The notes below the pieces were generated by a model that was not told the origin of the DNA, searched no databases, and saw nothing but the letters and a program-made list of their open reading frames with translations. Below are positions 8,927 to 46,390 of a stretch of DNA of 64,000 nucleotides, one piece after another. This DNA is from Methanobacteriota archaeon (GTDB taxonomy: Archaea; Thermoplasmatota; Poseidoniia; Poseidoniales; Poseidoniaceae). Numbering within the stretch: the stretch's first letter is position 1; every line of letters begins with the position of its first letter. The translations under genes and the position numbers were made by a program. The stretch lies in assembly GCA_004195515.1 (NCBI GenBank), contig PSPR01000001.1, forward strand, positions 14,480-78,479, read 5' to 3'.

Positions 8927-9055
8927 CGGTTCATCACCTTTCCCATCATTGGGCCTTTGGCCCACGCGGCTTTCTCCCATTTGAACCATGCCCAGTCGGG
9001 TCTGCAGACCTGCCGAGGGCAACGCTGGTATATGCGAGGGGCAATGCACCGTTAG

Positions 9056-9436
9056 GTGGAGCATATGGGCTGGTGGGCGAATCAACATGGAAAACAATTG
9101 AGAATTGCGGCAACAGTGACATTTGCTTCGATATTACTGACCAGTTTAAGTGGGCTACAATTAATGATTTTACAAGATATTTCTGGCTTTGAAGATTTCA
9201 CAAGCTTAGCGATAGTTGCTATCGTTATTGGAATAATTGGATTGTCTATTAGTGCACCTGCTTTTGCTAATCTAAAAGCAAGAGCAAATACCTTAGCTGA
9301 TATAATGAATATGTCCAGTTCATCGGAATTGGCAAAAAGTCGAGCCGATGGTGACGAATGTGCTAGGATTCTTGGTGGTGGCCATCAAGAGACTTGGAAC
9401 GAGTTCCTAACCGAGAAGGGATTGAAGAGGCGGTGA
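9056..9436 (+). CDS. small hypothetical membrane protein (2 predicted TM)
   Basis: 126-aa ORF with two hydrophobic stretches (AATVTFASILLTSLSGLQLMIL and LAIVAIVIGIIGLSISAPAF). It ends 15 nt before the signal peptidase gene on the same strand. The start is uncertain; an alternative ATG lies at 9164. Confidence 0.45.
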   Translation: MEHMGWWANQHGKQLRIAATVTFASILLTSLSGLQLMILQDISGFEDFTSLAIVAIVIGIIGLSISAPAFANLKARANTLADIMNMSSSSELAKSRADGDECARILGGGHQETWNEFLTEKGLKRR

Positions 9437-14675: not shown

Positions 14676-14689
14676 AGAATTCACCTAGT

Positions 14690-15304: not shown

Positions 15305-15464
15305 ATACAACTCGACCATGTGCAGGCAGGGGGGCCTGACCTTCATATACACATTGACCGAACCATTACTTTTCATCTAATTTCCCATAAACGGCTATCC
15401 GAAGTTGATTTGAGTAAAGCACGCTCCCAAGTGTAACGTGGGTCCGGAGAGAAGAGCGATTTGC

Positions 15465-18400
15465 ATGGCTATTCTCTTCATGCTGGGGAGTATCAACATC
15501 CCTGTTTCCGATGAGGTAGAATTTCCGTTCGACTATGAAAAAATTGGCTTGAGTGGACAATTTGACATTTGGAATGAGACTCCGTTTATCGACATTGCCG
15601 TTCCAGATGGATTTGACATGGATAGCATTACCGATTATAGTGACGTAGGGGTATTGATCAATAATCAATCCGAAGCCAGCCGAACCATCGGATGGGCTTT
15701 CGTAAATGCAAGAAATATTTCTTCTGATAGAATTTTTATCTTCGATAACGAATCTACTCCTGTTTCTGAAACGATTAACCGCGCTCAATTCAATGCATCG
15801 TTTCGCCACCCTTTGGAGACGATGTTAGCCGAATATAATGGCAGTAACGACATCAATTATTTGGTTACGACAAAGGGCGTACCGCTCAGAGTTAGCGGTG
15901 GAAACGATAGAGCCTCCTTCGACCAAGAGATCTCTTTGGTAGGAGGAATTTATTCTGGAAGCATCGGCAATAATTATTGGGTAAATCACGGATATGGTCC
16001 ATTGGCTGGGAAAAAAATGGAAAGTTTTACCAGAGAAGAATATGGTTTTTTCTTGGTCACCCGTCTAACCGGTTATACTATCGATACCGCATTGGAGTTG
16101 ATCGAGCGAGCTAACAATTCCTTCGGAGCTCGAGGAACTCACGTTTTGGACCTCGCGACAAATAGAAATAATTCTGGATACAAATTTTGGAATGATAATC
16201 TCTATACCGCAAATACAACCTTGAATGGTACGCTTGGATTACCGGTGCTATTCGACGAAGAAACAGAATTTTTAACCAATATTTCGAATGTTATTACCTA
16301 TGCTTCTTGGGGTTCGAACGATGGTAATTGGAATCGTAACTTTCTAGCAAATGCAGGTTTTGATACAACTGATAGTTCATGGTCGAGTGGGTCCAAATAT
16401 TGGGATGCTTTCTCTCCAACGGTCTCTCCCGGTGATGAATTTAATTGGAGTTATCAAACCGGAATTAAGCAAGGAGGTAATGGGGCGATGGAGGCCCGAG
16501 TTTCATCTGAATGCAGCCAAGAATCTGCCGACATGTCACCGGGGATTTTTGCCGAGTTCTTCGATAATGAAGGAATCAGTTTCAATACTGCTAGTATGCC
16601 TGATTTAATTGATCGAATTCCCGATCACGTACGTATCGAGAGTGACCTGGCTTACTCTTCTTCAGGCAATCCCTACCCGGGATTAGATGATAGATTCAAG
16701 CATAATTGGGGTGCGCGCTTTAGCGGACTAATCGACGTACCAGAATCAGGGAACTGGACATTATACCTCAATTCGGATGATGGTTCAGAATTGTGGATTG
16801 ATGATGTTAGTGCGGTACAAAATTATGGTTCACACGGAATGACGGAGCATTCTACAACGCTCTCCTTAACCGCGGGATATCATGATTTCAGAATAGAATT
16901 TTTCCAAGGTGGAGGACCACATGGTTTACTCCTTTCATGGCAAGGACCGAATGTGACAAAGACCAATATCCCTGCATCGGCATTCGTTGTATCGGGAGAT
17001 TATATTCCTCAGCAAGATAGTTTGATTCACAATTGGGATTTCGAGGAGGGTGTTGGAAACCAATCGAATGACAGTATTACGAATGGCTCCAACTTTACAC
17101 TATACGGGATGGATTCAAGCAATTGGAGAAATTGCATTGATGGCAATTGCCTGTGGTATGATGGTGCCGATGATTACGCCAAAGTGAATGTTGATGACTG
17201 GTTAGGAAATTTCTCTGTTAGTCAATGGGTTTGGGCAAATATCACTAATCAGACAAATAATGCAGCCACATTTGCGATTGATGATAATGCAGGCTCTAAC
17301 TACTCATTCCAACATATGGTCGCCAATAGTAAATGGAATTTACATAATAATCAGTCAAAGGAATTTGGTGATGTTGAGCCACAACGATGGGTTCATTTAG
17401 TGACCGTTTTTGATAGTGGTAACACTAGGCAATATCTCGATGGAGTACTGGTAAATTCCAATACATATCCAAATGGTTCAATAAATAATTTTGATTTGTA
17501 CAAGTTGGGAGTCAACCGGGCTGGCACTTCATATTTCGAAGGAATGATCGACAATTTGATGATCTGGGATACCGCTTTGAGTAATGGTTCTATTACTACT
17601 CTTAGTCGAGACATCATCAACAATTGCTCTGCATATTCTGGTAATGGCCAAGGTGTAGCGTACTTGGAAACAACTTATGCTGTCCCGACAAATTTCACAA
17701 ATCACGCTTGGTTGATTTATGGCTATGGGGAAAGAACAGGCGATGTATATGGTGAATACAATATCGAAGTTGCTTCTCTAGATTCAAATGGAACTGTATT
17801 GTTCACAAATACATCATCAAGTCAGTCTTTCACAACAACATGGAATTCCCGAACATTGAGGTTTAGACCACACCCCGATTCGACTTCTCTAAGGATTAGG
17901 GTATCGCTTGACATAGTGCCAACTTCGACAGATGGTTCACTATTCATTGATTCCACTTCATTACGAATAATCAGACCTCATATGGGCTGGGTAGACGGCT
18001 CCATCGCCGAAACAGCAGTATCGACCGGAGGGCGTTCGTTCAATTGGGGAACCGGTTATGGTCAATCATTGGTAGCGGATATTTTAGAGGATGGTGCTAG
18101 TGGTGTCAAAGGATATGTGTACGAACCATATTTGTCTGCGGTCACCTATCCAAGCGTATTGCTAGGAGCTTATGCGAGCGGCTATAATATGGCTGAATCC
18201 TATTATGCTGGTAATCTGTTAACAGGCTGGATGGGGGTTGTGGTCGGTGATCCAAAGATGGCAGCTTTCGGCGATATCGTTCACGATGTGGAAATCATCG
18301 ATGCGAGATTGATTGGTAACGCATCTGTGGACCAAGATTTCATTATCGAAATTGCTCTACAGAATATTGCTCCGGGAGATGCTGAAGGTTGGTTGACTAT

Positions 18401-32064: not shown

Positions 32065-33222
32065 ATGGCAGGAGAGGTAGCACCACAAGCGGAAGGAGCC
32101 CGAACCCTTCATCTTCGATCATTGCGCAAGCAATGGCAAATAGTCACCCTTCAGGTTTTGGCGACCATCGCATTGGTTTGGATGTACCTGGAAGTTGTTT
32201 CCACCTATGTCGTAGGCAGTATCGACCATACTCAATTATTCGCAACTCTAGAAGCAGGTCTAGGATCTGATTTACCACTCGGCGATTGGTTAACAGGTTC
32301 AGATAATGAGGGACTCGCTCGGTTTTACGTACCAATTTTCCTTGGGATCTCTTTAGGAGGTTCGATGGCTTTACTCGCATTCCAAACGCCTCAATTCCAA
32401 CAAAAAGTCAAACTTGGATTTATTATTGGCATGATTCTACTGCTTGCGGGTAGATTCGTTATGAGTTATTTGTGGCAGCTGATGTCAGATGGTTGGAGCG
32501 TACCGGGAAACGATGTTTTGGCATTATTGGAAACACCATTATTGATGATGCTTTCATTCATTATTTTGGCCTTTTATCTCTTACCGATCATCACTGGCAT
32601 CAAAGGTATTTGGGGATTATCACGGCGAGGTGTGGCTTGGTCAATCGGTTTCACCTTGCTTTTCTTAGCGATTCACGCAATTTTGACCTTCCCATTGATC
32701 AGGACTCAATTGGGAACTTATGGCGACCAATTAGCGACGCTTGAAGTGATTGTTTCGGATCCAACAGTATTTGGTTTGGTTTCAGCCCAGCAATTTTCAC
32801 TCATCCTTATCGCTTGTTTGATGATGGCATTCCAAGAATCTGCATTCGGTGTAATTCGCCATATGGAATACGCTTACCGCTTACCAGAATCTTGTAAGAG
32901 GGACCCTGAATACGTTGCTCAAATGGATAATGTCCTCAATGGTCACCTTCGACATACCGCCGTTTTCCTAACGATGACGGTAGTTGCAACGACAATCGCG
33001 TTAGGTTTCCATTCGATTTTACTCGATTGGGTTTCTGGAATTACTGGCTCTCAATGGGCATCACAAGTCGGCGAGTCTATCGAGTTAACCTTGACTTATG
33101 GATTGGTCATCTCGGCGTTATTATTCCTGGGATTCACCGCACTTCTGCGATTCATTGTTCCCTGGCAAAGGGTTTGGGGATTGATTGAATCCTCATTGAT
33201 CAGTAATGACAATACCGATTGA
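32065..33222 (+). CDS. polytopic membrane protein, hypothetical
   Basis: 385-aa ORF with at least 8 hydrophobic segments. It starts 9 nt after the DUF58 gene on the same strand. Confidence 0.65.
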   Translation: MAGEVAPQAEGARTLHLRSLRKQWQIVTLQVLATIALVWMYLEVVSTYVVGSIDHTQLFATLEAGLGSDLPLGDWLTGSDNEGLARFYVPIFLGISLGGSMALLAFQTPQFQQKVKLGFIIGMILLLAGRFVMSYLWQLMSDGWSVPGNDVLALLETPLLMMLSFIILAFYLLPIITGIKGIWGLSRRGVAWSIGFTLLFLAIHAILTFPLIRTQLGTYGDQLATLEVIVSDPTVFGLVSAQQFSLILIACLMMAFQESAFGVIRHMEYAYRLPESCKRDPEYVAQMDNVLNGHLRHTAVFLTMTVVATTIALGFHSILLDWVSGITGSQWASQVGESIELTLTYGLVISALLFLGFTALLRFIVPWQRVWGLIESSLISNDNTD

Positions 33223-33415
33223 GGTAAACCTTTTGGATATTTCTTCCGAAGAGTTCTGTAATTACAAAAACCAATATTGGAAGCAAACAAATTCTTGCTA
33301 CCCATAGCAGACCACCATCAAGGTAATTCTGCAGGGTAATTCCAACCCAAATTGCAGCTCCAATCAATGAATAGAAAATTAATTTCTCAAGCCAAAGCGG
33401 GTAAACCTTGCCCAT
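33200..33415 (-). CDS. small two-TM membrane protein (71 aa)
   Basis: MGKVYPLWLEKLIFYSLIGAAIWVGITL...LLWVARICLLPILVFVITELF. The ATG at 33415 lies 13 nt downstream of the coiled-coil gene stop and is preceded by GAGGAGGG. The longer track ORF overlaps the upstream gene. Confidence 0.55.
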   Translation of the reverse strand: MGKVYPLWLEKLIFYSLIGAAIWVGITLQNYLDGGLLWVARICLLPILVFVITELFGRNIQKVYLNRYCHY

Positions 33416-33428
33416 CGTAAAACCCTCC

Positions 33429-36400
33429 TCAAAGATCGATGCCATCCAATGCATCTTCGAGTTCGTCCAAAGCACTTGAATCTTCAACACTCTCTAAGGT
33501 CGGTTCACTTCGGCGATCCCAACGTGCGTCCAATCTTGCCAATTCCTGTTCGAGTTCTGCTCTTTCATCCTCTGGAGAAAAGGATTTTTCTACATCTGTA
33601 GGACTCGATACAATCCCCTCATCGACAGGGGTAGTCATCTCTTGCCACTCTTCACCAACATCCGATTTTTCAACAACAACCGCGATCTCCTCATCGATTA
33701 ATTCTCCTTTGAGTTCTTCGATAATTACCTCTTCGACCGGTGGTCTCATCCCGCTGGGAATGCTCTCACGCTCATAGGGTAAAATTCCGTCACGCTTGAA
33801 ATCCCAAAGTGCGCCTTGAACCTCTCCGGCGACGAATCCACTAGCATCTAATTGGGTTAACAATTCATCCAATGCCATGGTGGTAGCCTCTAGTCTGACC
33901 GCAGAACCAGCATCTCTCATATCGGCTTCCAAGTGGATATCATCCAATGCTTGTTGAATTAATGCCCGGGTTTCTCGTGCGAGAACCGGCAATGATTCAG
34001 GTCTTCGTGTATTTGCGATCAAGGCCTTGATCTGTTCGGCTGGAGCTCCTAATTTCTCCAATTGTTCGAGCACATTTCTGATTCGCCTCAACATGGTGAT
34101 CGAGCGGTCATAATCCTCGAGTAAATTTTCAAGATCCAAAATTAGATTCGTCACGGTATCTCCTAATTGGTGTTCCAACCTTTGTTGAACCGACCAGCGG
34201 GTCAAACCTCTAACCGCTCCTGCGGTCGCTGGAACCTGCCTTTCTAACAATCCCATCACCTCATTTGAGAGGAGATTTCGAGGGGTTGATGCTACGTGGT
34301 CGACTGTGGATTGAATGACTTGTAGGGCTCTTTCTACCGCACGGTCGAGTAAGGAAACCGAGTAACCGAGCGTGCGTGCGTGCTCTAATCGTTCTAGAAT
34401 AGGGCCTAGGCCTTCGAATTGAGAACTATCCTCTAACAGGGCTTGAGCCAATGGTTCTTCGGAAAGTTTCGCTCGCAAAATCGTCGCTTCTTGGATGTCG
34501 CTCAGGGCTTCTTCATGGGCAATTGCCAATGCTTCTGCTTGAACCAATAGGTTCGATAATTCTGCTTCTGCTTGGCCACGGCGAGCACCGAGGTCGCCTA
34601 ATTCTTTGAGTGTTTGGCGGCGCTCGTCCATCAGCTCTTTCATTTCTGAATGAATCATTGCAGCTCGGTTTTCTTGAGTGGTCAGACGAGAGCGATCTTC
34701 GTGAGTTCGCTCGCGGCTGGCTTTTGCTTCGGCACCGATTTGCTTGAGACCCAATTGGGCATCATTGATTCTACTTTCGATATCAGCCAATTCTCCTTGA
34801 GCCCGACGGTGCCGGTCTCGAGTTGCCTCAACTTGTTCCTCGATCATGCGATGGCGACGTTGGTCATCATCAATTCTCGATCTAATACTCGCTAGAGTTT
34901 GAGAGTGGGAATCGATATCGCTCGAAAGTGCTGCTTCTTGACTTGCCATTTGAGAAATCTGCGCAGATAATTCTGCTCCAGCTTTAGAATCTCCAAGCGC
35001 TTTTGCTAATTCACTAGCCCTCGAAGATAATTGATGCTCCAATTCGTTGACACGTTTTGACAATCGATCCGCTCTGGCTTCAGCCGCTTCAGCAGAGGCC
35101 TGAGCAGCCGAAAGGTCGAGTTGCATTTGATCCAAATCGGAATTGGAAGATGCGATTCTCGCTTGAACATCAGCCGCTTGGCGATTCGCTTCGATCGCAT
35201 CGACCTTAGCCGCTTGTTGAGCGGTTTTTGCCGAATCGAGTGCTACGTTGGTTGAGACCAATTCATTCTTGACTTCTGCTAAGCTCGATTCTGCCTTTTC
35301 CAATTTTCGGCGTAGCCCGTCATCGATTGGAACTGCTGCTTTAGCGGCTTTTGGCAAACCTTTGGAAATAGTTGCTATCTGAATGGCAAACGAAACCTTC
35401 GCTCTATCAGATTTTAGTTGAGCTAGACCGACCTCGAATCCATAGAGGTCTTCCATCTCTTGAGAGATCAATGCTTGACGAGATTGTGAGCGAGTTCTGG
35501 TAGTTGATAATTCAGAGCTGAATCCGGCTAGGGTAAAATCCGAAACATTTCCGGACTCTGTTCCGATGATTGTACCAACAGGTAATCGGTGGAGGGCGAG
35601 GACCCGTTTTGCTTCGGTCAAATCGTTCATCGATTGGGCCAAATCATGACCTTTTGGTGCTTGAATCGCAACCGGAACACCTTTATTGAGTGCAACTCGA
35701 ATCGCTTTAGCTGATTTTCCAGCAGCTAGATGACCGGTCAACCCCTCTTCAAGAGCGGTTTTCAGCATTGACAGAACCGCATCGGTCCCTCCTCTGCCCT
35801 CACGTAAAATATGGCCATCAGACAATTTTTCTCCGCCTGCACCCATGGCGCCAACCTGGCCGTCCATCAGGGCTGAAATTTGATTTATCATCCGTCCGTG
35901 ATCTACGTCTGCTTCGGTCCAGACCGCTAAAGCGACATCTCCAGCTTCAGCCAATAATAGCGAGCCATCGCCGGTGTGTAAGGTCCAATGACCTGCACCC
36001 TCGAGTCCGAGGTCGCTTGCCATCGCCTTGCGCCCTGCTAAAGTCTGGCCGACTTGTGCGGCCAATTTATCGGATTTCGCAGGAAGGTCACCAGAGGAGT
36101 CGATCAACATCCCTTGGTCGACCGCAATTCCACCTCTAACCTCTGGTCTTTGGCTCAAATGGTCTAATACTGCCGACAAATCACGAGAAAGTAATCGCTC
36201 CAGAGATTCGCCAGACCCAAGTAAACCGCGCATATCAGCAGAATGCTCGAAGGCTTCAACGACCAATTCTGCCACTGCGCCTAATGCCTGTTGTGACCAT
36301 GAAACCGCTTTATGGCGATGTGAATCTTGTTCCAATTGTGCTAATCGCTGCTTTGCCTCTGCTCCGCACAATAATTCCTTGCCTTTTTCGGGCTCAGCCA

Positions 36401-36569
36401 ACCAACCGACAACTCGTCCGGCTCGAACGATTCGATGGCCACTTGCGGTGCTTCTTCGACCGAGGTAAGTAGAGATAGCTCCGTGTTCGAAAGGCAAAAT
36501 TGCCCCTTCGCTCAAGTCGAGTTCTTCATCGACTGGGTTTCCATATGGTAATTCAAACATTATATTCAT
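33429..36569 (-). CDS. 1046-aa Roadblock/LC7 + PATAN(DUF4388)-like + long coiled-coil protein
   Basis: Residues ~128-236 (LSAVLDHLSQRPEVRGGIAVDQGMLIDSSGDL...GDGSLLLAEAGDVALAVWTEADVDHG) are Roadblock-like. Residues ~250-335 (GTDAVLSMLKTALEEGLTGHLAAGKSAKAIRVALNKGVPVAI) are DUF4388-like. Residues ~417-705 are an uninterrupted A/E/Q/R/L-rich heptad-like helix. The C-terminal tail is acidic. Confidence 0.75.
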   Translation of the reverse strand: MNIMFELPYGNPVDEELDLSEGAILPFEHGAISTYLGRRSTASGHRIVRAGRVVGWLAEPEKGKELLCGAEAKQRLAQLEQDSHRHKAVSWSQQALGAVAELVVEAFEHSADMRGLLGSGESLERLLSRDLSAVLDHLSQRPEVRGGIAVDQGMLIDSSGDLPAKSDKLAAQVGQTLAGRKAMASDLGLEGAGHWTLHTGDGSLLLAEAGDVALAVWTEADVDHGRMINQISALMDGQVGAMGAGGEKLSDGHILREGRGGTDAVLSMLKTALEEGLTGHLAAGKSAKAIRVALNKGVPVAIQAPKGHDLAQSMNDLTEAKRVLALHRLPVGTIIGTESGNVSDFTLAGFSSELSTTRTRSQSRQALISQEMEDLYGFEVGLAQLKSDRAKVSFAIQIATISKGLPKAAKAAVPIDDGLRRKLEKAESSLAEVKNELVSTNVALDSAKTAQQAAKVDAIEANRQAADVQARIASSNSDLDQMQLDLSAAQASAEAAEARADRLSKRVNELEHQLSSRASELAKALGDSKAGAELSAQISQMASQEAALSSDIDSHSQTLASIRSRIDDDQRRHRMIEEQVEATRDRHRRAQGELADIESRINDAQLGLKQIGAEAKASRERTHEDRSRLTTQENRAAMIHSEMKELMDERRQTLKELGDLGARRGQAEAELSNLLVQAEALAIAHEEALSDIQEATILRAKLSEEPLAQALLEDSSQFEGLGPILERLEHARTLGYSVSLLDRAVERALQVIQSTVDHVASTPRNLLSNEVMGLLERQVPATAGAVRGLTRWSVQQRLEHQLGDTVTNLILDLENLLEDYDRSITMLRRIRNVLEQLEKLGAPAEQIKALIANTRRPESLPVLARETRALIQQALDDIHLEADMRDAGSAVRLEATTMALDELLTQLDASGFVAGEVQGALWDFKRDGILPYERESIPSGMRPPVEEVIIEELKGELIDEEIAVVVEKSDVGEEWQEMTTPVDEGIVSSPTDVEKSFSPEDERAELEQELARLDARWDRRSEPTLESVEDSSALDELEDALDGIDL

Positions 36570-36907
36570 CTCATCAAAGCACAGATCATGTCGGCATCAC
36601 GGTCGATGGCATGGCGCCATCGAGCGATTCTTCCACCCTTTTTTCCGGATAAAACCAGAAAAGAATCGATGTTCAATCGTGATAACATCAATTTTTCTCC
36701 ACCTTCACACCACATCTCAAGACCTTGGCCAATACCGGTGGATTGCTCCATGTCGATCAAGGTCTTGAGCAACTGGGTAGCATGTTCGACTTCAGGTACT
36801 CGATTCCTCTTTCCAACAGCTGAAACCAGGCCATCTCTTGTCGAAATGATGTATGCTTGGTCAACCCCTGTCAAAGCGGTAAATCGGGCCAGAATGCGTT
36901 GCAACAT
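36566..36907 (-). CDS. Roadblock/LC7 (MglB-like) domain protein
   Basis: 113 aa. LTGVDQAYIISTRDGLVSAVG...EMWCEGGEKLMLSRLNIDSFLVLSGKKGG fits the Roadblock alpha-beta-alpha pattern. Its stop codon overlaps the start of the downstream gene (ATGA at 36566-36569). Confidence 0.65.
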   Translation of the reverse strand: MLQRILARFTALTGVDQAYIISTRDGLVSAVGKRNRVPEVEHATQLLKTLIDMEQSTGIGQGLEMWCEGGEKLMLSRLNIDSFLVLSGKKGGRIARWRHAIDRDADMICALMR

Positions 36908-37040
36908 GCGCGCTCAGAGGGGCTCAGGTCGAATAAGGCTTCAAGAAGTTTGGGTTTAGCCAACGCCCGTAGGGCGATTTGAGCAGTAGATTCAATTCGC
37001 CAACTGAAAATGATAAAACCGGGGGAATTCATTCTTCAAC

Positions 37041-37072
37041 TCCAATTGAAAATTTAATTTTCCAATTGAAAA
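37041..37072. repeat. two exact copies of TCCAATTGAAAA spaced 20 bp apart in a divergent promoter region
   Basis: Read directly at 37041-37052 and 37061-37072, separated by TTTAATTT. Each copy contains the palindrome CAATTG. Confidence 0.6.
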
Positions 37073-37114
37073 AATCAACCAATCACATCAAGCCAAGAAC
37101 CTGCACGAAGTGCC

Positions 37115-38086
37115 ATGACCAGTCCTTTTGATGTCCCGAGTTGCGATAAATGTCGCAAACCGGCAATTCATCATCAAGTCTACAGTGGTCGGATGATGTG
37201 TGGAGTCCATTTGACCGATAGTGTTCGCAAGAAAGTTTCCAAGGCGATTCGCAAACAATTAGTGATTCCATACGGTGGTTCGATAACTATTCTTGTCGCG
37301 ATAAGCGGTGGCAAAGATTCTGCGGTTTTACTCGATAGAATTGTCGATGCTTTGGGGAAAAATAGCCGGGTTACAATCGTTGGTGGTTGTGTTGACGAGG
37401 GAATAGAGGGTTATCGAAAACCATCTCTGGAATGCGCTCGTCAATTATGCGCAGATCTCGGAGTAAGATTTGAGACGGTTTCCTATCCAGAATTGGGATT
37501 CATCGAGATGGATGAAGCGGTCAAACGTATCGAATTAACAAATGACAAAAAAACACCTTGTTCGTATTGTGGGGTTTTCCGGCGTCAAGGGGTGAATCAC
37601 CTGGCCAAGAGAGTCGGAGCTGATGTGATCGCCTTCGGTCATAACTTGGACGATATGGCTCAGACGGTTTTAATGAATTTACAAAATGGTGATGTCGATC
37701 GCACTTTGCGATTAGCCCCTCATACCGAAAATTTGATCGAAGGGATGATCCCAAGAATTGTACCATTGAGGTGGGTGCCAGAACAAGAGGTCCATCTCTT
37801 CGCATTGGAGCGCGGATTACCAATCCATCACGATGAATGTCCTCATGGTGAAGGTGCATTGAGATTTAGGCATCGAGAAATGGTCGCATTGATGGAATCC
37901 GATACTCCAGGAAGTCGCCATGGAATGTTAAGATTTGCAGATGAGATCAAATCGATTCATCAGAAATTAGACCAAAAAAGGATGGCGCCGCCCGAAGCTT
38001 GTCCGGTTTGTGGGGAGTTGTGCAGTGGTACAATTTGTAAGGCCTGCGAAATGAAGGAAAGCCTCGGCTCAAACCCTTCTTCGTAA
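37115..38086 (+). CDS. tRNA 2-thiolation PP-loop ATPase (Ncs6/Ctu1/TtuA family)
   Basis: N-terminal zinc finger CDKC...CGVH, PP-loop SGGKDS, Fe-S cysteines CSYCGVFRR and a C-terminal CPVCG...CKAC. Confidence 0.85.
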   Translation: MTSPFDVPSCDKCRKPAIHHQVYSGRMMCGVHLTDSVRKKVSKAIRKQLVIPYGGSITILVAISGGKDSAVLLDRIVDALGKNSRVTIVGGCVDEGIEGYRKPSLECARQLCADLGVRFETVSYPELGFIEMDEAVKRIELTNDKKTPCSYCGVFRRQGVNHLAKRVGADVIAFGHNLDDMAQTVLMNLQNGDVDRTLRLAPHTENLIEGMIPRIVPLRWVPEQEVHLFALERGLPIHHDECPHGEGALRFRHREMVALMESDTPGSRHGMLRFADEIKSIHQKLDQKRMAPPEACPVCGELCSGTICKACEMKESLGSNPSS

Positions 38087-39799
38087 TCTTTCCATGAACC
38101 CATCGGCCAGACCTAGCGCCTCTAGGGCTTCATCAGCCCTACCGGCCTTATGAGCCTCAATTGCTAAGCCAATGGATTCCTCAGTCGACCGTCTTTCTTC
38201 ATCGGTTGGTTTTATCGAGGCAGTATCACATTGATTTCGTAATGAATTCCATTCGGTTTTAATGAAATCTAATAATTCTGATACCTCATCACTAGCTTTC
38301 CCTTCCGAATCCAAATCTCTTGTCATTCGGTCCAACAAGGTTGCAGCATGAGTCCATTGCTTTTGGTCGGCTTGTTCCTCAATTTCGACTAGGCGAGTAT
38401 CCCAATCACTCGCATCATCTCTTCCTGACCATTGGGTGATCAGGTGGACTTTTTGCCTCAATGCTCTTCGAACATCTTCCATCGCTTCGCGTTCGGCCAC
38501 TATCTCTCTACTCACGCCTTCTGCCAATCCTTTGGCTTGAGCGTGGTCACCAGAATCTAGGGCTTTTTGAGCCCGGTCGAGCCGCTCTTGAAGTGATGAT
38601 TTTACAATTCCATCAGCGGATTTCAATTGTCTATTCGCTTCTTTGAGCGATGCTTCTGCGATTTCACTCGCTTCGCCAGATGCGCTGATTTGATCAGGAA
38701 TTACCTTTGCATATTCGAATGCTTTTTTGGGTTGTTCAGCATTGAGTTTCTTCTTCGATTCGGTGAGCAATTCGCTCAGATTATTTTGGGCATGAGGGGA
38801 TTTTGCTATCAGTGCAGCACCTTCTCGAATAGCATCTTCGGCTTTTTGCCACCATTCAACAACTTCAGTTGCACGTTTTTTGGCTTGGCGGTACAATGAT
38901 TCACCCTCGCGTAAACTGCCTAACTCAACCTCGCGCTCAGCCATTTCGAAGGCCTTTCTCGGTCGCTTGATAATCGGTGCGATCTCTTCGGCCGTCTCAA
39001 TCGTTGCCAATGTATCTGCTCGAATCGCTTCGACATCGCCTGCTAATGATAGTGAACGTTCGATGTCCTCTTCAGCATCATCGAGTAACCTCATACCCCA
39101 TTCAGGGTCTCGGTGGCCTTCTTCTCTTGCAGTCACGACCAAACTTCCGGCTTGGTCGACCGCTGCTCCTATTGATTTGAGTTCCAACATTCGTTGTTCG
39201 ATTTGGTTTAATCGAGTGTCGAATTTTTTGCGGTTTTCTCTTTGTTCATCGTGGCCAAACCAATCTTTAGATGTTAAGTATAGACCAATAATGATGAAAA
39301 TGCTTTGGAAATACATTGTTTCAGACTTGACCAATGAACTCGCTAAAACCAATCCCAAGAACCCCATCACCGCTCTAAAACGCATGACGTCCATGTCGCC
39401 TCGAAGGATATTTCTGCTGGTTTTGAAAAGATAATATGAGACGATAACCAATAGACCTGCGCCTATTTGGTGACTTATATTTTCATTCAATGTTGAACCG
39501 GCTAAAACCAGAATTGGCAAGTATGCAATAGTTGATGCCGCGCCGATTTTCGATCTCGATTTTTCATCCATTACCGCTAGGTCCTGGACCAATACTCCCC
39601 ATGCTAATAGGATAATCGAATAGCCAATGCCGCTTAATAATGAGCCGCCGTTCATCGCTGCAGTCAATGCTGGCCAAGCCAACCAAGTTGCTGCTGAGAG
39701 GATGATTAATGCACTAGCGCTAGAGAGGTTCTCTATGTGCTTCAGCCTGAGGTTTGCCTCGGCTTCGACCGCCTTATCAAAGTCGATGAACCCGTCCAT
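38069..39799 (-). CDS. membrane protein with ~5-6 N-terminal TM segments and a long alpha-helical/coiled-coil cytoplasmic domain
   Basis: 576-aa ORF. Residues ~25-175 are hydrophobic; the rest is charged helical repeat-like sequence (E/A/K/R-rich). It starts 26 nt after the upstream surface-protein gene. Confidence 0.7.
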   Translation of the reverse strand: MDGFIDFDKAVEAEANLRLKHIENLSSASALIILSAATWLAWPALTAAMNGGSLLSGIGYSIILLAWGVLVQDLAVMDEKSRSKIGAASTIAYLPILVLAGSTLNENISHQIGAGLLVIVSYYLFKTSRNILRGDMDVMRFRAVMGFLGLVLASSLVKSETMYFQSIFIIIGLYLTSKDWFGHDEQRENRKKFDTRLNQIEQRMLELKSIGAAVDQAGSLVVTAREEGHRDPEWGMRLLDDAEEDIERSLSLAGDVEAIRADTLATIETAEEIAPIIKRPRKAFEMAEREVELGSLREGESLYRQAKKRATEVVEWWQKAEDAIREGAALIAKSPHAQNNLSELLTESKKKLNAEQPKKAFEYAKVIPDQISASGEASEIAEASLKEANRQLKSADGIVKSSLQERLDRAQKALDSGDHAQAKGLAEGVSREIVAEREAMEDVRRALRQKVHLITQWSGRDDASDWDTRLVEIEEQADQKQWTHAATLLDRMTRDLDSEGKASDEVSELLDFIKTEWNSLRNQCDTASIKPTDEERRSTEESIGLAIEAHKAGRADEALEALGLADGFMERLRRRV

Positions 39800-39825: not shown

Positions 39826-42321
39826 TCAGAACCGCGGCTGTTTGCGTTGAATCAACCAATTGATTACGAATGCTGAAATCACCGCGAGGAACATTAATTC
39901 GAGCCCGCCGATTCCAGCGCCTGAACTATATTTTGATACATGTTCGACCGTTACGGTCTCATTATTGTCATCAGGATAAGTCAATTCGATGGTGAATGTT
40001 TCAAACCAACCCAATTCAACATTGAGCGGGATGTCGGTCATCCCGGTTTGGGAGAATGAACTACCAGCTACAGAAGAATCGGTACACACGTCGATAAAAC
40101 ATATTGTGAAAGGAGTCGATGTCGCACCATTATTTTTGATTGTCACCCAGAACTGATTCTTGCCAGGACCCAAATTATCTCCCGAATATACCACCTTTGA
40201 AATTTCTAGATCTCTAGTTGTTAATGGGTTGACTCCGATGCCGACCAGAGCGCCAGCTCGGTTGCCTTCGGTATCGATTCCAACCACATTGAATAGATGA
40301 TAGCCGATATCTAAGGACGGAACTTGCCATAATTGAGCCTGTTGCCATGAGATGCCACTCGCGATAATTTCTTCTTCGAGCGAAACTTCGAATTTCACAT
40401 CTTCAATCGCATTATGATCATCGAAACTCTTCGTTAGGTTTAGCCTAAGCGAGTCACCAACCCGAATGGTGTTTACCGGCTGCCAGGTGCCGTTTACATC
40501 GGTTTCCAAACTGTGAATGATCACCGGGCCTGCCGCATCGGTTAATCGGATCGTCCAATTTCCTAATACGAAATGTCCAACGTCATCGCTAACATTTGCA
40601 GCCAACCAATATTCGACCAGCCCTCTTTCTTTATGGCGTTCACTGATATTGTCATTGATGGTATTTACACTTGAATCAACATTGAAAGAAGTTTGTAAAT
40701 AATCACCGGTATACCACCAATCTAGACTTTTATTGCTGGTCCAAAATACCCTGAGGTTTTCATCAATATCGTCGCCGACAATCAAATCCCAGTTAAATTG
40801 CCCTGGCGGGATTTCTTGAATTTCATCGCTTGCGTTTATCCATGGAGTTCCTTGGTCGAGGATATATGTGCCATTCCACCAGCCATATGCTCCGCCTTCG
40901 TCCCAACAACTCAGGTTGACACTCAGATTAGACCCTGCATCGAAGGAGGAAAGGTTGACACTTGAGTTATCGTTGAGATCACCGATATTCCAATCACAAT
41001 CATGGGTCGATAATGAGGCATCGGAAATAATTGGAATGAATTCGAAATCTTGGTCGAGCCAATCTAGAGAATAGCCAGATGGACCACTGACTACCGGTGC
41101 TTGGTTTGCAGCGATTGTAATAGTATACATCCCACTGATGGATGCTTGGTTTCTGCTCAGGTTGAAGTCCGAAGGAATACCGGAGATCCATTCGTCCAAT
41201 GGCGAAGACAAGAATTGCCAATTTCCATTGGTCTTGAAATTGAGGGTTGTCATTTGTCGAATGTCGTTATTGAATGGCACTTCGATCCTCATCAATTCTA
41301 GGTGCGAGCGGTTGAAACCGATGTTAGCGGATTCGGCCCAGCCCCATTCACCGGTTGAAAAATCGATATTAGCAGAAATTTCAACTTGGGAAAAATCAAC
41401 CTCTTTGTGATCTATCTCACAGCAGAGAGCCTCCATGCCATCCGAATAAGACATCGATTCTAGAAGTGCTTCCAATCGACTTACATCGCCCGATAAAAAT
41501 CGATCGGTTTGGCTTTCGATTCCGGCTTCAACCCCTGGGATAAATGGTAAACCTAGGCCGGTGTTGAATTTGTGCTCAACATCCCATGATGCATTCATCC
41601 TTTGGTTTGGAACCAAATCTTCCAGAAATTCAATGGTCGCGACCCCGGTGGTTTGAGTTGAGTTTATTTGTTGCCAAATCCATTCGACAGTTGGTGGCCA
41701 AATCGCTTGGCCTCGTACCAATCCATCGACAAATAGTCTTGCCGACCAACCGGCGCCATATTCGCCGACCGTAAGGTTGCCATCGGCCCATTCAACGATT
41801 TGTCCCGAACCGGTGTGGATTGCTTTTACCGTTACATTCGAGCCATTAAATTCACTCAAATTATAGGTATTGGTAGAAGTAGGAATAGAGATGATTGGTT
41901 GCGAGTTTCTCACTTCACTGCCACCATCTCCAATTACGATTACCGGGATTGAGGGTGCATCGACCGAGCCATTTTCAACTTGAATTAGCCAATCGCTACC
42001 GATCGCTTGAATCGTATGTGCACCTTCGACCGTGAACAAATCCTCAATTATCGGGTGGGCGGTCATCACCACTAGGCCTTGACTCGAGTTTACCGGTTCG
42101 TGCCACATCAACACATAGCCATCACAACTTGCATGCGGTTGGTACATCCCAGAAATAGGTGAATTCGAAACCACTCCGCTCCAAGGTTCACTAAACCAAG
42201 TTTGGCAATTTGAGATTGGATTTCCGAGGGAATCTTCAACTTCAATTGTCCAAGAATTCGCTGAATCTGCTGAAAATGACGGCACCAAAATCAGAATTGC
42301 CAGCACTATCGCCTTGCGCAT
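39826..42321 (-). CDS. cell-surface protein (~831 aa) with C-terminal TM anchor
   Basis: Signal peptide MRKAIVLAILILVPSFSADS (ATG at 42321), many N-x-S/T sequons and a CARDB-like module (QFWVTIKNNGATSTPF...). The C-terminal TM is LELMFLAVISAFVINWLI, followed by QRKQPRF. Confidence 0.8.
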   Translation of the reverse strand: MRKAIVLAILILVPSFSADSANSWTIEVEDSLGNPISNCQTWFSEPWSGVVSNSPISGMYQPHASCDGYVLMWHEPVNSSQGLVVMTAHPIIEDLFTVEGAHTIQAIGSDWLIQVENGSVDAPSIPVIVIGDGGSEVRNSQPIISIPTSTNTYNLSEFNGSNVTVKAIHTGSGQIVEWADGNLTVGEYGAGWSARLFVDGLVRGQAIWPPTVEWIWQQINSTQTTGVATIEFLEDLVPNQRMNASWDVEHKFNTGLGLPFIPGVEAGIESQTDRFLSGDVSRLEALLESMSYSDGMEALCCEIDHKEVDFSQVEISANIDFSTGEWGWAESANIGFNRSHLELMRIEVPFNNDIRQMTTLNFKTNGNWQFLSSPLDEWISGIPSDFNLSRNQASISGMYTITIAANQAPVVSGPSGYSLDWLDQDFEFIPIISDASLSTHDCDWNIGDLNDNSSVNLSSFDAGSNLSVNLSCWDEGGAYGWWNGTYILDQGTPWINASDEIQEIPPGQFNWDLIVGDDIDENLRVFWTSNKSLDWWYTGDYLQTSFNVDSSVNTINDNISERHKERGLVEYWLAANVSDDVGHFVLGNWTIRLTDAAGPVIIHSLETDVNGTWQPVNTIRVGDSLRLNLTKSFDDHNAIEDVKFEVSLEEEIIASGISWQQAQLWQVPSLDIGYHLFNVVGIDTEGNRAGALVGIGVNPLTTRDLEISKVVYSGDNLGPGKNQFWVTIKNNGATSTPFTICFIDVCTDSSVAGSSFSQTGMTDIPLNVELGWFETFTIELTYPDDNNETVTVEHVSKYSSGAGIGGLELMFLAVISAFVINWLIQRKQPRF

Positions 42322-42420
42322 ATCCCCTGAGGGTACATTCATCCCTCATCAATAAAGCGGGTTGTCGCGCCCTAATGTTCAAGTCCGTCCTTATCTCAAG
42401 CCAGTGGGAAGGGGAGCATT

Positions 42421-43861: not shown

Positions 43862-46390
43862 TTAGATTAAATTTGCTTTTTCACAGGCTTTGATATCGAT
43901 CCAACCAGGGAACCCAAGATCGATCGGCATGCCCCCGGCTGTAATGATTAATCCAGTTGTAATCAACTGATTCAACAACGGCGGATTAACCCAATCTAAC
44001 TTTTTCCAGGCCCTTTTACCAGAAACCAATTTATCCATTCGACCTCGAACGACCCACGAATTAGCATTCCATGCGTGCTGCTTCATCAGAGCGGTTTCTA
44101 TTTGCGGAGGTGGAACCACGTTATGCGATTCCACCCAATTGTGTTCCCATTCACCTATCATGGTATCAGCCCAGATCAAGCCGGTATTCTCAACAGCCGG
44201 CATAGATATTTCTTTCTTTTCCGCCAATTGGATTGCCAATCTTCTCAAATGCGGGTGACGCGGATATTTATCCATCGTTTTCTTGACGATTTCGACTGCT
44301 TCAGCCATCTTTTTAGAATCGAGATATAGGATTGCCCTCGCGGTTTGTCCATGCGGCCAGGTTTCGATATCAACATCGTTTTTAATGATCCATTGCTCGA
44401 ATTTCTCGAGTGCTAACTGCCCTTTTCCAGCAGATCTCATCCGGGCCAAATCACCCAAAACCAACAATCTTCCAGTCGAATCATCGAGCCATTTGATCTT
44501 CGGCTCCGATTCATTATCCCTGTATCTTTTAATCAAGTCAATATTTCTCCGTGTAACCGGGTCGACTAAAAGAATCGCTTCAAATTGCGGCGGTAATTTT
44601 TTCGAAGGATCAAAAATGCTCGCCGCCCAACAAAGTCTTGCCGCTTCAAGGTCTTCGGTTGCTAATAGTTTGAGCCGGGGCATCGCTTCAGGAATATCTC
44701 TTTGAGCTAAAGACGCGGCTGCCAGTAATAAACGTGCAATTTCGGCTTTGCGACCCGCTCGCAATGCTAGGAAGGAAAGTGCGACCTGTTCGGCTTGATC
44801 CCAGCGTCCCAAGCCGGAAAGGAGTTCCATACTGGCTTCGGTTCGTTTGACCAAAGACAATCCTTCAATGCTCTCTTCTCCGTGGTCCTCGTAGAGTTTT
44901 TCCATTCTCTGCAATGCTTTAGACCATTGGTCATTGGCAACCATCGTGGTAAAATTTCGCCTTTGGCGGTAAATCAAATTCTCGATGCCTTCGAGTTTAA
45001 TCCGGTTTTCATTTGCGGTTGCATCAAATTGAATATCCGACAATTTTTGCCCGGTTCTTCTCGACATTACCCAAATAACCAAAAATACAATCTGGCCACC
45101 TGATGCTAACATCCATGTCATCTCTTCGAGTGCGTCCTTTCGAACAAATCCGCAAACCGTATTTTGCCAAGTTCCACATTGTTCTGGCTTTGGCAAAAAT
45201 TGGCTATCCCAGAATGTCATCATCGCAAGGGCGAGCAAGAGCATCGATTGTCCGGCAAATCCGGTAAAACAAAAATTCAAAACTTTGGCTTGCTGGCTTT
45301 TTTCTGATCTGAGAAGTCTTGAGTCTGCGATGTGAATTCCGCCCATGCCAGAGATATCTGCAATATCTAGGAATAGAATTCTTGCAACCTCATAGACGAA
45401 TAGAAAACCTACCAGTGCGATGTTGAGCAAGAGGAATAGCAGTAACATCGAGACCAATGGAACCCTTATTCCGGCCTCTCCAATATATGAAAACAATTCG
45501 ATAATGTAGAAGCCGAGGACCCCTCCTTCCTCCATTATGGTGGTTTGAACTGTGTATTCGGGGAGATTGAGAACTTGTTGCGAATGTTGGAACATATCTG
45601 GATTTATCAATAATAGAATCAAAGATATGACCGTATTTAGAGCGATAAATGGCATAATTACGGCATTGAAATAAACCAAATTGGATACGAATTGTTTGCG
45701 TGCTCTTGGTTTGAAAGGATAAAACGCCGAAGGCTCGCCTTTGGAAAGAGCATGAGAACTTTCTTTGAGGGCAGTCCAAGATGAACCCAATATTCTGCCA
45801 TAAGCAATGAAGCTTGGAGCGAATGCCATCGTGCCGATAATTGCAATTCTTCGGTCCCAAGATGTGCCTGCGAAAGAGAGGATGAACCAGGTGATACCTA
45901 CAGCACTAAACCAAAGAATAGTGACAACAATGCTTGTTCCCAATCTGAATGAGGAACTGCTTTGGAGCGAGGTTCTACTCGAAGCTGTCGGTTGCATTAT
46001 CTGAACAGAAAGGCTCACTCCAGCAGAGATTAACGCAGGGAATACGATGAATATCAATGCTACTCCGAGTGATATTTTGTGGTAACCTTCCGAAATCCCA
46101 AATTCGATGAACATCCATTCGATTCCAAGTAAAATAGCACCGATGAATGCCATCATGTAAATGATGATTCCATCTCTCATCCCTCTTGTTTTCAACAATT
46201 GGCTCGCTTCGGTTTTATTTGCGGTTACAGTATGAACCTCGTATCGTTTTGGCCCGGTTGGAAACGCCACTTGTAAACCAGATAGAGACCGAGGAATGAA
46301 AACATGATAGAATAAATAAGCGGTAAATGCAGATAGAGCCATCGCCAATATTGCGATAAATCCAAATTCATCAATTATCGAAAATTCCAT
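43862..46390 (-). CDS. large polytopic membrane protein with C-terminal helical-repeat (TPR-like) domain, hypothetical
   Basis: 842-aa ORF. Residues ~1-470 contain at least 10 hydrophobic segments. The C-terminal ~370 aa are soluble and helix-rich. It starts 13 nt after the thrS stop codon. Confidence 0.7.
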   Translation of the reverse strand: MEFSIIDEFGFIAILAMALSAFTAYLFYHVFIPRSLSGLQVAFPTGPKRYEVHTVTANKTEASQLLKTRGMRDGIIIYMMAFIGAILLGIEWMFIEFGISEGYHKISLGVALIFIVFPALISAGVSLSVQIMQPTASSRTSLQSSSSFRLGTSIVVTILWFSAVGITWFILSFAGTSWDRRIAIIGTMAFAPSFIAYGRILGSSWTALKESSHALSKGEPSAFYPFKPRARKQFVSNLVYFNAVIMPFIALNTVISLILLLINPDMFQHSQQVLNLPEYTVQTTIMEEGGVLGFYIIELFSYIGEAGIRVPLVSMLLLFLLLNIALVGFLFVYEVARILFLDIADISGMGGIHIADSRLLRSEKSQQAKVLNFCFTGFAGQSMLLLALAMMTFWDSQFLPKPEQCGTWQNTVCGFVRKDALEEMTWMLASGGQIVFLVIWVMSRRTGQKLSDIQFDATANENRIKLEGIENLIYRQRRNFTTMVANDQWSKALQRMEKLYEDHGEESIEGLSLVKRTEASMELLSGLGRWDQAEQVALSFLALRAGRKAEIARLLLAAASLAQRDIPEAMPRLKLLATEDLEAARLCWAASIFDPSKKLPPQFEAILLVDPVTRRNIDLIKRYRDNESEPKIKWLDDSTGRLLVLGDLARMRSAGKGQLALEKFEQWIIKNDVDIETWPHGQTARAILYLDSKKMAEAVEIVKKTMDKYPRHPHLRRLAIQLAEKKEISMPAVENTGLIWADTMIGEWEHNWVESHNVVPPPQIETALMKQHAWNANSWVVRGRMDKLVSGKRAWKKLDWVNPPLLNQLITTGLIITAGGMPIDLGFPGWIDIKACEKANLI

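Follow-up and report, generated by a model that had tools for sequence, protein, structure and literature searches.

A compact three-gene operon with close gene spacing, found in Poseidoniales (Marine Group II) and not outside this order, encodes a stand-alone Roadblock-fold protein, a large protein in which a second Roadblock domain precedes a long coiled coil, and a membrane mini-protein. No account of the three-gene system or of its protein family was found in the literature, and it appears to be undescribed, as an earlier sequence-only reading of the same DNA had suggested. From the domain architecture we infer, at what we judge to be an even chance, that the three products form a cytoplasmic scaffold, non-enzymatic and anchored at the membrane. 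No conserved enzyme or NTPase motif was detected in the operon proteins by Pfam, in the alignment of relatives or in a scan for G1-G3-G4 motifs.

Organization of the operon

The window, that is the whole 64-kb stretch of DNA that was analysed, carries three open reading frames on the minus strand where the sequence-only reading had placed them, comprising gene 1 (36566..36907, 113 aa, a stand-alone Roadblock/LC7/MglB-fold protein), gene 2 (33429..36569, 1046 aa, a multidomain protein) and gene 3 (33200..33415, 71 aa, a membrane mini-protein with two hydrophobic segments). Gene 1 stops and the gene 2 ORF starts in a shared ATGA at 36569-36566, which makes the gap −4 nt. This overlap exists in the sequence as had been read, although the start used may instead be the ATG at 36560, 6 nt past the gene 1 stop and giving a 1043-aa product, because the relatives of the gene 2 product and most tblastn matches begin at query residue 4 (MFELP); some clades match from residue 1. 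Gene 3 follows gene 2 after 13 nt, behind the expected Shine-Dalgarno-like motif GAGGAGGG (33423..33430, minus strand), which overlaps the gene 2 stop codon (33431-33429) at 33430-33423 and lies 7 nt before the gene 3 ATG at 33415. This ATG itself sits inside a 96-aa ORF with a GTG start. Upstream of gene 1, the intergenic region 36908..37114, read on the minus strand as the presumed promoter region of the operon, is common to the operon and a divergent TtuA-like gene and contains TTTTCAATTGGA twice, in copies 20 nt apart.

Direct Pfam and PDB searches with the proteins of the window returned nothing significant, and family profiles and structure prediction were therefore needed to assign domains.

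Two Roadblock modules

The 113-aa protein has 56 homologues, the named ones all from Poseidoniaceae, and no transmembrane segment by hydropathy. Its AlphaFold2 model (pLDDT 87.4) shows the element order a-b-b-a-b-b-b-a, and the best Foldseek match is MglB (6izw_C, E 2.8e-7, TMq 0.84), followed by Asgard Roadblocks, MglC and LAMTOR. On the basis of this model, a Roadblock/MglB fold is predicted with confidence, in agreement with the earlier assignment of the product to the Roadblock/LC7 fold. The window protein itself has no match to Pfam Robl_LC7 (PF03259), and the family profile finds the Thorarchaeota Roadblock 7f8m in the PDB weakly, at E 0.31. The top PDB match of this profile, to the designed WD40-like proteins Ika4/Ika8 (E 1e-7), was rejected as an artefact because it sums up numerous repeats, each below threshold, of the string 'SG..G.I..W'. 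For L003, the relative at the greatest distance, an upstream ORF of 100 aa is only marginally similar to the 113-aa protein (hhalign E 0.022, probability 2%).

The 1046-aa protein has 451 homologues at E ≤ 0.001, the best 120 of which are full length and 73–91% identical, and no transmembrane segment by hydropathy. Its N-terminal 420 residues found matches in only 62 clusters when 1.84 billion representatives were searched. Thirteen aligned full-length relatives are co-linear with the query, down to 25% identity. The protein opens with a beta-rich domain (aa ~4-105, 36255..36560, minus strand) modelled at pLDDT ~90 with the order b-b-b-(b)-a-b-a, for which neither the PDB nor Pfam holds a match.

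Behind it lies the second Roadblock module of which the sequence-only reading had spoken, here placed at aa ~119-236 (35862..36215, minus strand). The modelled order of elements, a-b-b-a-b-b-b-a, is that of the Roadblock fold, and the top 50 Foldseek matches are all Roadblock proteins (E 2e-7 to 4e-5), including 9jue, 7yh1, MglB 6hjm and LAMTOR. At the level of sequence, the family profile matches CvnB5 (3leq) in the PDB at E 3.9e-5 and Rv3364c at E 0.11, and six of the thirteen family members match Pfam Robl_LC7, with a best E of 2e-4. The protein from the window scores 11–14 bits against the same model (E 0.06–0.3), where the cut-off is 23.

A PATAN-like module

The third module of the large protein (aa ~253-328, 35586..35813, minus strand) is modelled at pLDDT ~88-94 with the order b-a-b-b-b-a-b. 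No DUF4388 (PF14332) match was obtained for any of the thirteen family members, even at E ≤ 10, while positive controls from Deinococcus gobiensis scored 40–50 bits. A PATAN profile was also compared directly. A PATAN consensus used to seed a plasmid search found nothing at E ≤ 1e-3 and, at E ≤ 10, led to a Deinococcus protein verified as DUF4388 by Pfam. A third homologue search, seeded with these PATAN proteins, returned one protein only, and a metagenome scan gave 80 loci; the final profile of 80 sequences combined 77 distinct sequences from these loci with three Pfam-supported seeds. The core compared consists of helix 1, 'tG.L.v', 'G.iv.A' and the 'GE.A' helix 2.

Alignment of module 3 to this profile by hhalign was weak (score 21.4, P 0.0035, probability 9%) and covered 53 columns in the expected register, with a score that none of 150 column shuffles reached (mean 11.4, sd 2.3). 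Of the earlier proposal of a DUF4388/PATAN-like module, the order of elements and a weak, non-random profile similarity thus stood and the match to the DUF4388 model did not, and aa ~253-328 may be described as a weakly supported PATAN-like module. The N-terminal beta-rich domain was also considered as a PATAN domain and rejected, its hhalign similarity being not significant with 18 of 150 shuffles reaching the score; nor was its similarity to module 3 significant in hhalign. Two further candidates were set aside. The Walker-A-like string GHLAAGKS in module 3 is unconserved in relatives and was rejected as a motif, and the C-terminus of a 537-aa Deinococcus PATAN protein, Roadblock-like by eye, is supported by no tool.

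The membrane mini-protein and conservation of the operon

Hydropathy shows two hydrophobic segments in each of four mini-protein orthologues examined, as had been proposed for the 71-aa product. Its ends are conserved, with YPLW(L/I)E(K/R) at the N-terminus and ITExxGRxIQ at the C-terminus. With two membrane segments, both ends would face the same side of the membrane, and the charge distribution suggests that this side is the cytoplasm.

The large protein family occurs in 250 species-level genomes. All named homologues are from Poseidoniales, if two records that are evidently mis-binned are set aside. Conservation of the neighbourhood was followed in 91 loci, made up of the best 80 species-level loci (L011-L090), all 80 of which are from Poseidoniales, ten others (L001-L010) and the window itself. 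Immediately upstream of the large gene, the small Roadblock gene is found in 79 of the 80 species-level loci, and also in L001 and the window. Downstream, the mini-protein HMM matches (E 1e-16 to 1e-33) immediately behind the large gene in 76 of 91 loci and also in L002-L004, where an inserted gene separates the two and the match lies ~1.3 kb away. In all, the mini-protein gene is present downstream in 84 of 91, even past an inserted FG-GAP gene. Among four distant lineages that were sampled, two have no adjacent small Roadblock gene, and one of these also lacks an adjacent mini-protein gene. The arrangement is conserved in Poseidoniales, and the sequence-only reading, which a lack of conservation in related genomes would have refuted, passes this check. 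Given that a neighbourhood of ~40 kb is syntenic throughout the order, part of the adjacency reflects general collinearity.

Absence of an adjacent GTPase

None of the 37 larger ORFs of the window (~0.9-62 kb) belongs to a GTPase Pfam family, no ORF in the window carries G1-G3-G4 motifs, and neither a GTPase family nor such motifs were found within ±6-10 kb of the large gene in the other 90 loci. The claim that the operon has no partner GTPase thus holds for the window and for these flanks, as a statement about the neighbourhood and not the genome. An MglA-family GTPase within four genes, by which MglB is classed as 'coupled' (PMC4316618), was seen neither in the window nor in the 90 loci. Because 328 of 749 MglB-family proteins (~44%) are 'orphans' in this sense (PMC4316618), the missing neighbour is less unusual than had been implied. 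MglB lacks any catalytic residue that could be sought in its sequence (PMC4316618).

The operon might still encode a GTPase-regulatory platform, in which an MglB-like pair of Roadblocks serves as putative GAP or GEF for a small GTPase (MglA-, Arf- or Rag-like) encoded elsewhere, with the rod and anchor placing this activity in the cell. The best structural matches, MglB complexed with MglA and the Asgard and Ragulator Roadblocks, point this way, as do the label 'predicted regulator of Ras-like GTPase activity' that IMG gives to some homologues and the PATAN proteins often encoded near MglB homologues (PMC4316618). We nevertheless consider it unlikely. No GTPase was found in the 64-kb window or in the flanks of the 90 other loci, and MglC, Rv3364c and LAMTOR are examples of Roadblock proteins whose work is not known to involve catalysis of GTP hydrolysis. 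Uncoupled MglB-family proteins are numerous, and the Group 4 MglA of archaea is nearly confined to methanogens (PMC4316618).

A coiled-coil rod of fixed length

The longest proline-free stretch of the large protein, aa 415-705 (34455..35327, minus strand), is heptad-periodic, with a heptad score of 0.59 against 0.36±0.03 in shuffles and reached by none of 200, which bears out the uninterrupted coiled coil of ~290 residues that had been read from the sequence. Across the thirteen relatives (25–91% identity), aa 420-705 comprise exactly 286 residues without proline or indel, and the anchor-to-anchor spacing around the rod is 346–350 residues in 75 loci. The heptads form two long runs, 419-514 and 531-684, on either side of a conserved ELAKALGDS break.

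A heptad rod whose length and break are conserved, standing between a head and a tail, is the layout of an intermediate-filament-like, coiled-coil-rich cytoskeletal protein, and the composition of the rod resembles that of SMC and other long coiled coils. As such a protein, the gene 2 product would be predicted to form filaments under the membrane, with the segmented rod driving polymerisation and the head and tail regulating assembly. This appears improbable, as conservation is highest in the globular C-terminal domain and not in the rod, and searches brought up no homology with crescentin or with other coiled-coil-rich families.

The C-terminal domain and acidic tail

The helical C-terminal domain (aa ~706-945, 33735..34454, minus strand) has a mean column identity of 69%, compared with 48–51% in the N-terminal modules, and the spacings within it do not vary across 75 loci. 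The only PDB match of this domain, FliS at E 0.03, was distrusted, as it involves one Aquifex protein and a helical, compositionally biased sequence. The domain is followed by the acidic tail (aa 946-1046, 33432..33734, minus strand), whose presence, like that of the helical domain, had been anticipated. These last 101 residues contain 35 D/E and 8 K/R. The tail varies in length, the distance from a conserved WDF motif to the C-terminus, which takes in the tail, being 101–169 residues across loci, and ends in a motif, LExxLxxΦ[D/E]Φ, that is kept in 79 loci.

This amphipathic peptide behind an acidic linker, which may loosely resemble the MIT-interacting LxxRLxxL peptides, makes the protein a candidate adaptor that hands clients to an AAA+ machine such as Cdc48, whose gene lies 5 kb away and is syntenic in all loci inspected. 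The Cdc48 gene is, however, on the opposite strand in a separate gene block, synteny is order-wide and no MIT-domain protein was identified, which leaves such a role very improbable. An SMC/Rad50 or S-layer-associated identity, which the sequence-only reading had named as a refuting case, was rejected on the evidence of sequence as extremely improbable: the NCBIfam SMC/Rad50 models and the PADLOC JetC model, likewise rejected, match aa ~419-721, thus the coiled-coil arms only, the SMC/Rad50 models at no more than 41.6 bits against cut-offs of at least 567; no ABC ATPase head family flanks the rod in Pfam and the sole Walker-A-like string is the unconserved GHLAAGKS; the N-terminus is a Roadblock head, and hydropathy detected no transmembrane segment.

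A proposed membrane-attached scaffold

A membrane-tethered scaffold, polarity or cytoskeletal module had also been suggested by the sequence-only reading. For the scaffold proposed at the outset, the two Roadblock modules would pair into the usual dimer platform, in the manner of MglB with MglC and of LAMTOR pairs. This pairing rests on analogy, since no sequence similarity between the two modules was detected. The rod would dimerise into a spacer of set length, ~40 nm when extended or about half of this if folded back at the conserved Gly break, and the mini-protein would keep the complex on the membrane. Another machine could then be positioned or recruited by this assembly, and a GTPase partner, if there is one, would have its gene elsewhere in the genome. 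The leading candidate for this machine is the archaellum or adhesion-pilus apparatus, because PATAN domains bind the motors of bacterial type IV pili. PATAN is an output domain that binds PilB and PilC (bioRxiv 10.1101/2021.06.11.447907) and is often encoded near MglA/MglB homologues (bioRxiv 10.1101/2021.06.11.447907; PMC4316618), and the archaellum operon is present in all Poseidoniaceae genera, which have no chemotaxis genes (PMC6461757). The link to the archaellum is drawn purely by analogy, and the large protein also occurs in divergent lineages. We tentatively put forward, as possible rather than probable, that a GTPase-independent, membrane-tethered rod of fixed length, peculiar to these most abundant of planktonic archaea, sets the position or spacing of a surface machine such as the archaellum or adhesion pili in cells devoid of chemotaxis genes, as an archaeal counterpart of the bacterial MglB/PATAN polarity modules or of the eukaryotic Ragulator platform.

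Comparison with known systems

In the polarity module of Myxococcus xanthus and Thermus thermophilus, MglB and MglC have the fold of both Roadblock modules of the operon, and the small protein matches it at TM 0.8-0.84. As in the operon, two paralogous Roadblock genes stand together in that system, and the literature ties their products to PATAN proteins and type IV pilus polarity. In contrast, sequence identity is only 13–21%, an MglA-type GTPase is lacking within four genes or ±6-10 kb, one Roadblock of the operon is fused to ~900 residues of rod, C-terminal domain and tail, and the hosts are archaea with an archaellum and without identifiable chemotaxis genes (PMC6461757). The best sequence-level match of the Roadblock domain in the large protein is to the actinobacterial conservon proteins CvnB/MfpX (CvnB5, 3leq). 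A conservon has four genes, among whose products are a histidine kinase, a DUF742 protein and a GTPase (PMC4316618), none of which the operon contains.

According to PMC5696360, Ragulator is a platform formed by a membrane-anchored small protein and paired Roadblock modules. The operon likewise combines a small membrane protein with Roadblock modules, and Ragulator (LAMTOR1-5) and Asgard proteins are among its top structural matches. No homology beyond the Roadblock fold was seen, however; the anchor of the operon is a two-segment integral membrane protein whereas that of Ragulator is a lipidated wrap-around peptide, and the operon has a long coiled coil and no Rag-type GTPases. With PatA, PixE and PixG (PATAN/DUF4388), module 3 has its weak profile similarity in the expected register, but it fails the DUF4388 model and lacks the alpha-clip insertion and a receiver domain.

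FrzS and AglZ of Myxococcus, in which a small signalling-type N-terminal domain precedes a long coiled coil, are polar scaffolds in a Roadblock/GTPase circuit. The large protein follows the same architectural logic without known homology. Its head is Roadblock/PATAN-like where theirs are receiver domains, and FrzS and AglZ are not known to have a conserved helical C-terminal domain or a membrane mini-protein partner.

Among the archaea of the surface ocean Poseidoniales are dominant, and their cell biology is almost unknown because the order remains uncultured. The operon, a core one for the order with its presence in 250 species-level genomes, points to a dedicated device for spatial organization that unites a PATAN-like module and two Roadblock modules with a ruler-like coiled coil and a membrane anchor. 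Such a device would extend the Roadblock proteins, which range from bacterial MglB and the Asgard Roadblocks to eukaryotic Ragulator and dynein LC7, beyond their usual pairing with an adjacent GTPase gene. The operon is for now a lead, one that structural studies and heterologous expression can take as a concrete target.

Roadblock folds in the small and large proteins

Three minus-strand open reading frames (ORFs) were called where a sequence-only reading had placed them: a small gene encoding 113 aa (36566..36907), a large gene encoding 1046 aa (33429..36569) and a gene for a 71-aa mini-protein (33200..33415), the ATG of which is internal to a longer GTG ORF. Direct Pfam and PDB searches returned no match for the small protein, and the sole sequence-level hint, from its profile against PDB, was a weak match to the Thorarchaeota Roadblock 7f8m (E 0.31). 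Designed WD40-like proteins, the top PDB match of this profile, were discarded as a repeat artefact. An AlphaFold2 model built from an alignment of 24 homologues (pLDDT 87.4, pTM 0.82) displayed the order α-β-β-α-β-β-β-α. Its best Foldseek match in PDB was Myxococcus MglB bound to MglA (6izw_C; E 2.8e-7, TM 0.84), followed by Asgard Roadblock proteins, Thermus MglB, MglC, a Streptomyces Roadblock and LAMTOR subunits. The model and these matches confirm, at the level of predicted structure, the Roadblock/LC7 fold proposed for the small protein.

An exhaustive HMMER search of 1.84 billion representatives with residues 1–420 of the large protein matched only 62 clusters, approximately 13 of which are full length (1020–1089 aa), all co-linear with the large protein at identities down to 25%. 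AlphaFold2 modelling of residues 4–420 with 13 aligned relatives (pLDDT 79.5) resolved four parts, numbered here as in the model (ORF numbering minus 3): a β-rich N-domain (~26–100), an α-β-β-α-β-β-β-α domain (116–233), a β-α-β-β-β-α-β module (250–325) and a long helix (359–386). Every one of the top 50 Foldseek matches of this head model was a Roadblock protein. The family profile retrieved the solved Roadblock CvnB5 (E 3.9e-5) and, more weakly, Rv3364c, Asgard Roadblocks and LAMTOR4, and Pfam Robl_LC7 was matched by six of 13 family members. Together these results confirm that the second Roadblock module, suspected from the sequence, is real.

A DUF4388/PATAN-like module had also been claimed. 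The Pfam DUF4388 model matched none of the 13 family members, even at E ≤ 10, but a weak similarity in the expected register was detected by profile comparison. Two Deinococcus gobiensis plasmid proteins with Pfam-verified DUF4388 and a third, DUF4388-annotated protein were used as seeds to gather 80 metagenome PATAN loci, and the resulting profile was compared with the β-α-β-β-β-α-β module by hhalign. The alignment scored 21.4 (P 0.0035), with a low probability of 9%, over 53 columns in the order expected of PATAN (helix 1, 'tG.L.v', 'G.iv.A', 'GE.A' helix). None of 150 column shuffles reached this score (mean 11.4, sd 2.3), and the N-domain and Roadblock domain of the large protein scored like their own shuffles. 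On this basis we tentatively describe the module as PATAN-like, a weakly supported assignment. A Walker-A-like GHLAAGKS within the module (35745–35768, aa 268–275) is not conserved in relatives and was dismissed as a chance match. Separately, D. gobiensis plasmid P1 (NC_017805.1, 2305–3918) was observed to encode a 537-aa ORF missing from the PLSDB gene table, in which a Pfam-verified DUF4388/PATAN domain precedes a Pro-rich linker and a C-terminal 113 aa. The latter resembles a Roadblock by eye, an assignment rejected for want of Pfam, PDB or hhalign support.

Rod, C-domain and membrane mini-protein

The long coiled coil attributed to the large protein was borne out. Residues 415–705 form its longest Pro-free stretch, with a heptad score of 0.59 against 0.36 ± 0.03 for shuffles, and the rod is exactly 286 residues, without Pro, in 13/13 relatives. 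The anchor-to-anchor spacing around it is 346–350 residues (75 loci), and the family-averaged heptad register is continuous over 419–514 and 531–684, shifting at a conserved ELAKALGDS. The helical C-domain (706–945) is the most conserved region, with 69% mean column identity against 48–51% for the head modules, and its internal spacing is invariant across the loci compared. The tail is acidic, as proposed (35 D/E versus 8 K/R); the distance from a conserved WDF motif to the C-terminus, tail included, varies from 101 to 169 residues, and LExxLxxΦ[D/E]Φ closes the tail in every case. One rival reading takes the large protein to be an intermediate-filament-like polymer. A routine SMC/Rad50-type identity fails, as NCBIfam SMC/Rad50 and PADLOC JetC matches fall far under cut-off and are limited to the coiled-coil arms, and the lone Walker-A-like string is unconserved; an S-layer identity finds no support, given that hydropathy showed no transmembrane (TM) segment in the large protein. 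The mini-protein possesses the two hydrophobic segments expected of it in 4/4 orthologues examined, and has a conserved N-terminal YPLW(L/I)E(K/R) and C-terminal ITExxGRxIQ.

Gene arrangement and its conservation

The stop of the small gene was thought to overlap the start of the large gene. An ATGA is indeed present at 36569–36566, its TGA sharing bases with an ATG of the large gene, but the start in use is probably a non-overlapping ATG at 36560, 6 nt past the small gene's stop. This start is preferred because residue 4 (MFELP) is where relatives of the large protein begin, as do most matches in a scan of one genome per GTDB species; some clades match from residue 1. The stop of the large gene falls within GAGGAGGG (33430–33423), and the mini-protein ATG follows 13 nt after the end of the large gene, so both the gap and the motif are as first described. 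The last 23 nt of the mini-protein gene (33200–33222) are shared with the 3' end of a convergent gene for a 385-aa multi-TM protein (32065..33222, plus strand), the last of a same-strand block of Cdc48, DUF4350, DUF58 and TM protein. In the intergenic space that separates the operon from a divergent TtuA-like gene upstream, TTTTCAATTGGA occurs twice (37041–37072), 20 nt apart and each time holding the palindrome CAATTG; the pair may bind a regulator or act as a promoter element.

By the names of its homologues, the window belongs to Candidatus Poseidoniaceae (Marine Group IIa). The species scan identified a relative of the large protein in 250 genomes, and the best 80 are all Poseidoniales except for one evidently mis-binned record. 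At 79 of these 80 loci an ORF matching the small-Roadblock HMM has its end no more than a few nt from the large gene's start, the lone exception being a truncated contig. Over 91 loci (the 80, ten fetched earlier and the window), the mini-protein HMM matched downstream of the large gene in 84, 76 of them within ~40 nt. The three-gene arrangement is thus conserved in relatives.

Four more distant lineages that were sampled show variations. The lineage of P0190, a distant relative of the large protein, keeps both neighbours. In the most distant lineage (P0200, 25% identity; loci L002–L004) a short ORF is kept upstream, only marginally similar to the small Roadblock protein, and a gene for an FG-GAP membrane protein is inserted between the large and mini-protein genes, which hints at a link of the operon with a surface protein. 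At this site (13182/13221–14567 and 14578–14859) the inserted gene overlaps the large gene's 3' end; its FG-GAP-repeat product, ~450 aa long, starts with a hydrophobic segment and has a TM segment at the C-terminus. In the other two, P0184 and P0188 (loci L008/L009 and L010; 33–34% identity), no small Roadblock ORF lies upstream of the large gene, and P0188 (L010) also has no adjacent mini-protein gene; the missing partners in these loci may be encoded elsewhere or lost.

The wider neighbourhood is syntenic throughout (ThrRS, PyrBI and TtuA-like on one side; DUF58, DUF4350 and Cdc48 on the other), so that general collinearity accounts for part of the adjacency. An operon is nevertheless favoured by the near-zero spacing and by an arrangement that has outlasted local insertions. 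On the same strand, beyond the TtuA-like gene, lies a 576-aa protein (38069–39799) with N-terminal TM segments, a long helical charged region and no family match, syntenic in relatives as a 581-aa gene (L001 and L002). The window also encodes several very large proteins at 3932–9097 (minus), 15438–20438 (plus), 39826–42342 (minus) and 43862–46390 (minus). Two have domains typical of proteins that are secreted or surface-exposed (CARDB in the 1721-aa protein, PA14 and Laminin_G_3 in the 1666-aa one), and those of 838 and 842 aa have no family match; these observations agree with earlier proposals that Marine Group II leads an adhesion-rich life.

Roadblock modules without an adjacent GTPase

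The absence of a GTPase gene from the window held: no small-GTPase family in Pfam was matched by any of 37 larger ORFs (~0.9–62 kb of the 64-kb window), and no ORF with ordered G1-G3-G4 motifs was present in the window or the other 90 loci (with ±6–10 kb flanks for the large-protein loci). By this search neither Roadblock module classes as a 'coupled MglB'. An uncoupled Roadblock protein is not exceptional by itself, since Wuichet and Søgaard-Andersen's criteria class 328 of 749 proteins of the MglB family as 'orphans' (PMC4316618), and archaeal Group 4 MglA is nearly limited to methanogens (PMC4316618). A second rival reading has the operon product regulating a distant GTPase.

Discussion

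Among known systems, the nearest counterparts are MglB/MglC, conservon CvnB proteins, Asgard Roadblocks together with Ragulator, and the PATAN regulators. By fold the small protein and the module of the large protein are both members of the Roadblock family; in the neighbourhoods searched they are not coupled, as MglB proper is, to an MglA-family GTPase. Literature searches found no description of the family or its architecture, in keeping with the view that this is not a described archaeal system; the only prior recognition is an automatic IMG label, 'Roadblock/LC7/MglB family', on some homologues.

No catalytic signature marks the anatomy. One Roadblock module is free; the other shares a chain with a PATAN-like module, a ruler-like rod, a C-domain that is strongly conserved and an acidic tail bearing a terminal peptide. 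The remaining part is a membrane mini-protein. From this anatomy we give even odds to a membrane-tethered scaffold. In such a scaffold the Roadblock modules would pair, as do MglB with MglC and those of Ragulator, the rod would dimerise into a fixed-length spacer, the mini-protein would anchor the complex in the membrane, and the C-domain and tail peptide would recruit a partner. An adaptor for an AAA+ machine is a further rival. For the scaffold, the leading specific guess, by analogy, is that it positions the archaellum or adhesion pili. [quoted passage not shown] The archaellum operon (FlaHIJ) is missing from half of the genera in Thalassarchaeaceae. Known here from sequence and predicted structure, the operon described here offers a solid lead: it is conserved widely in a group of archaea that is ecologically dominant and uncultured.
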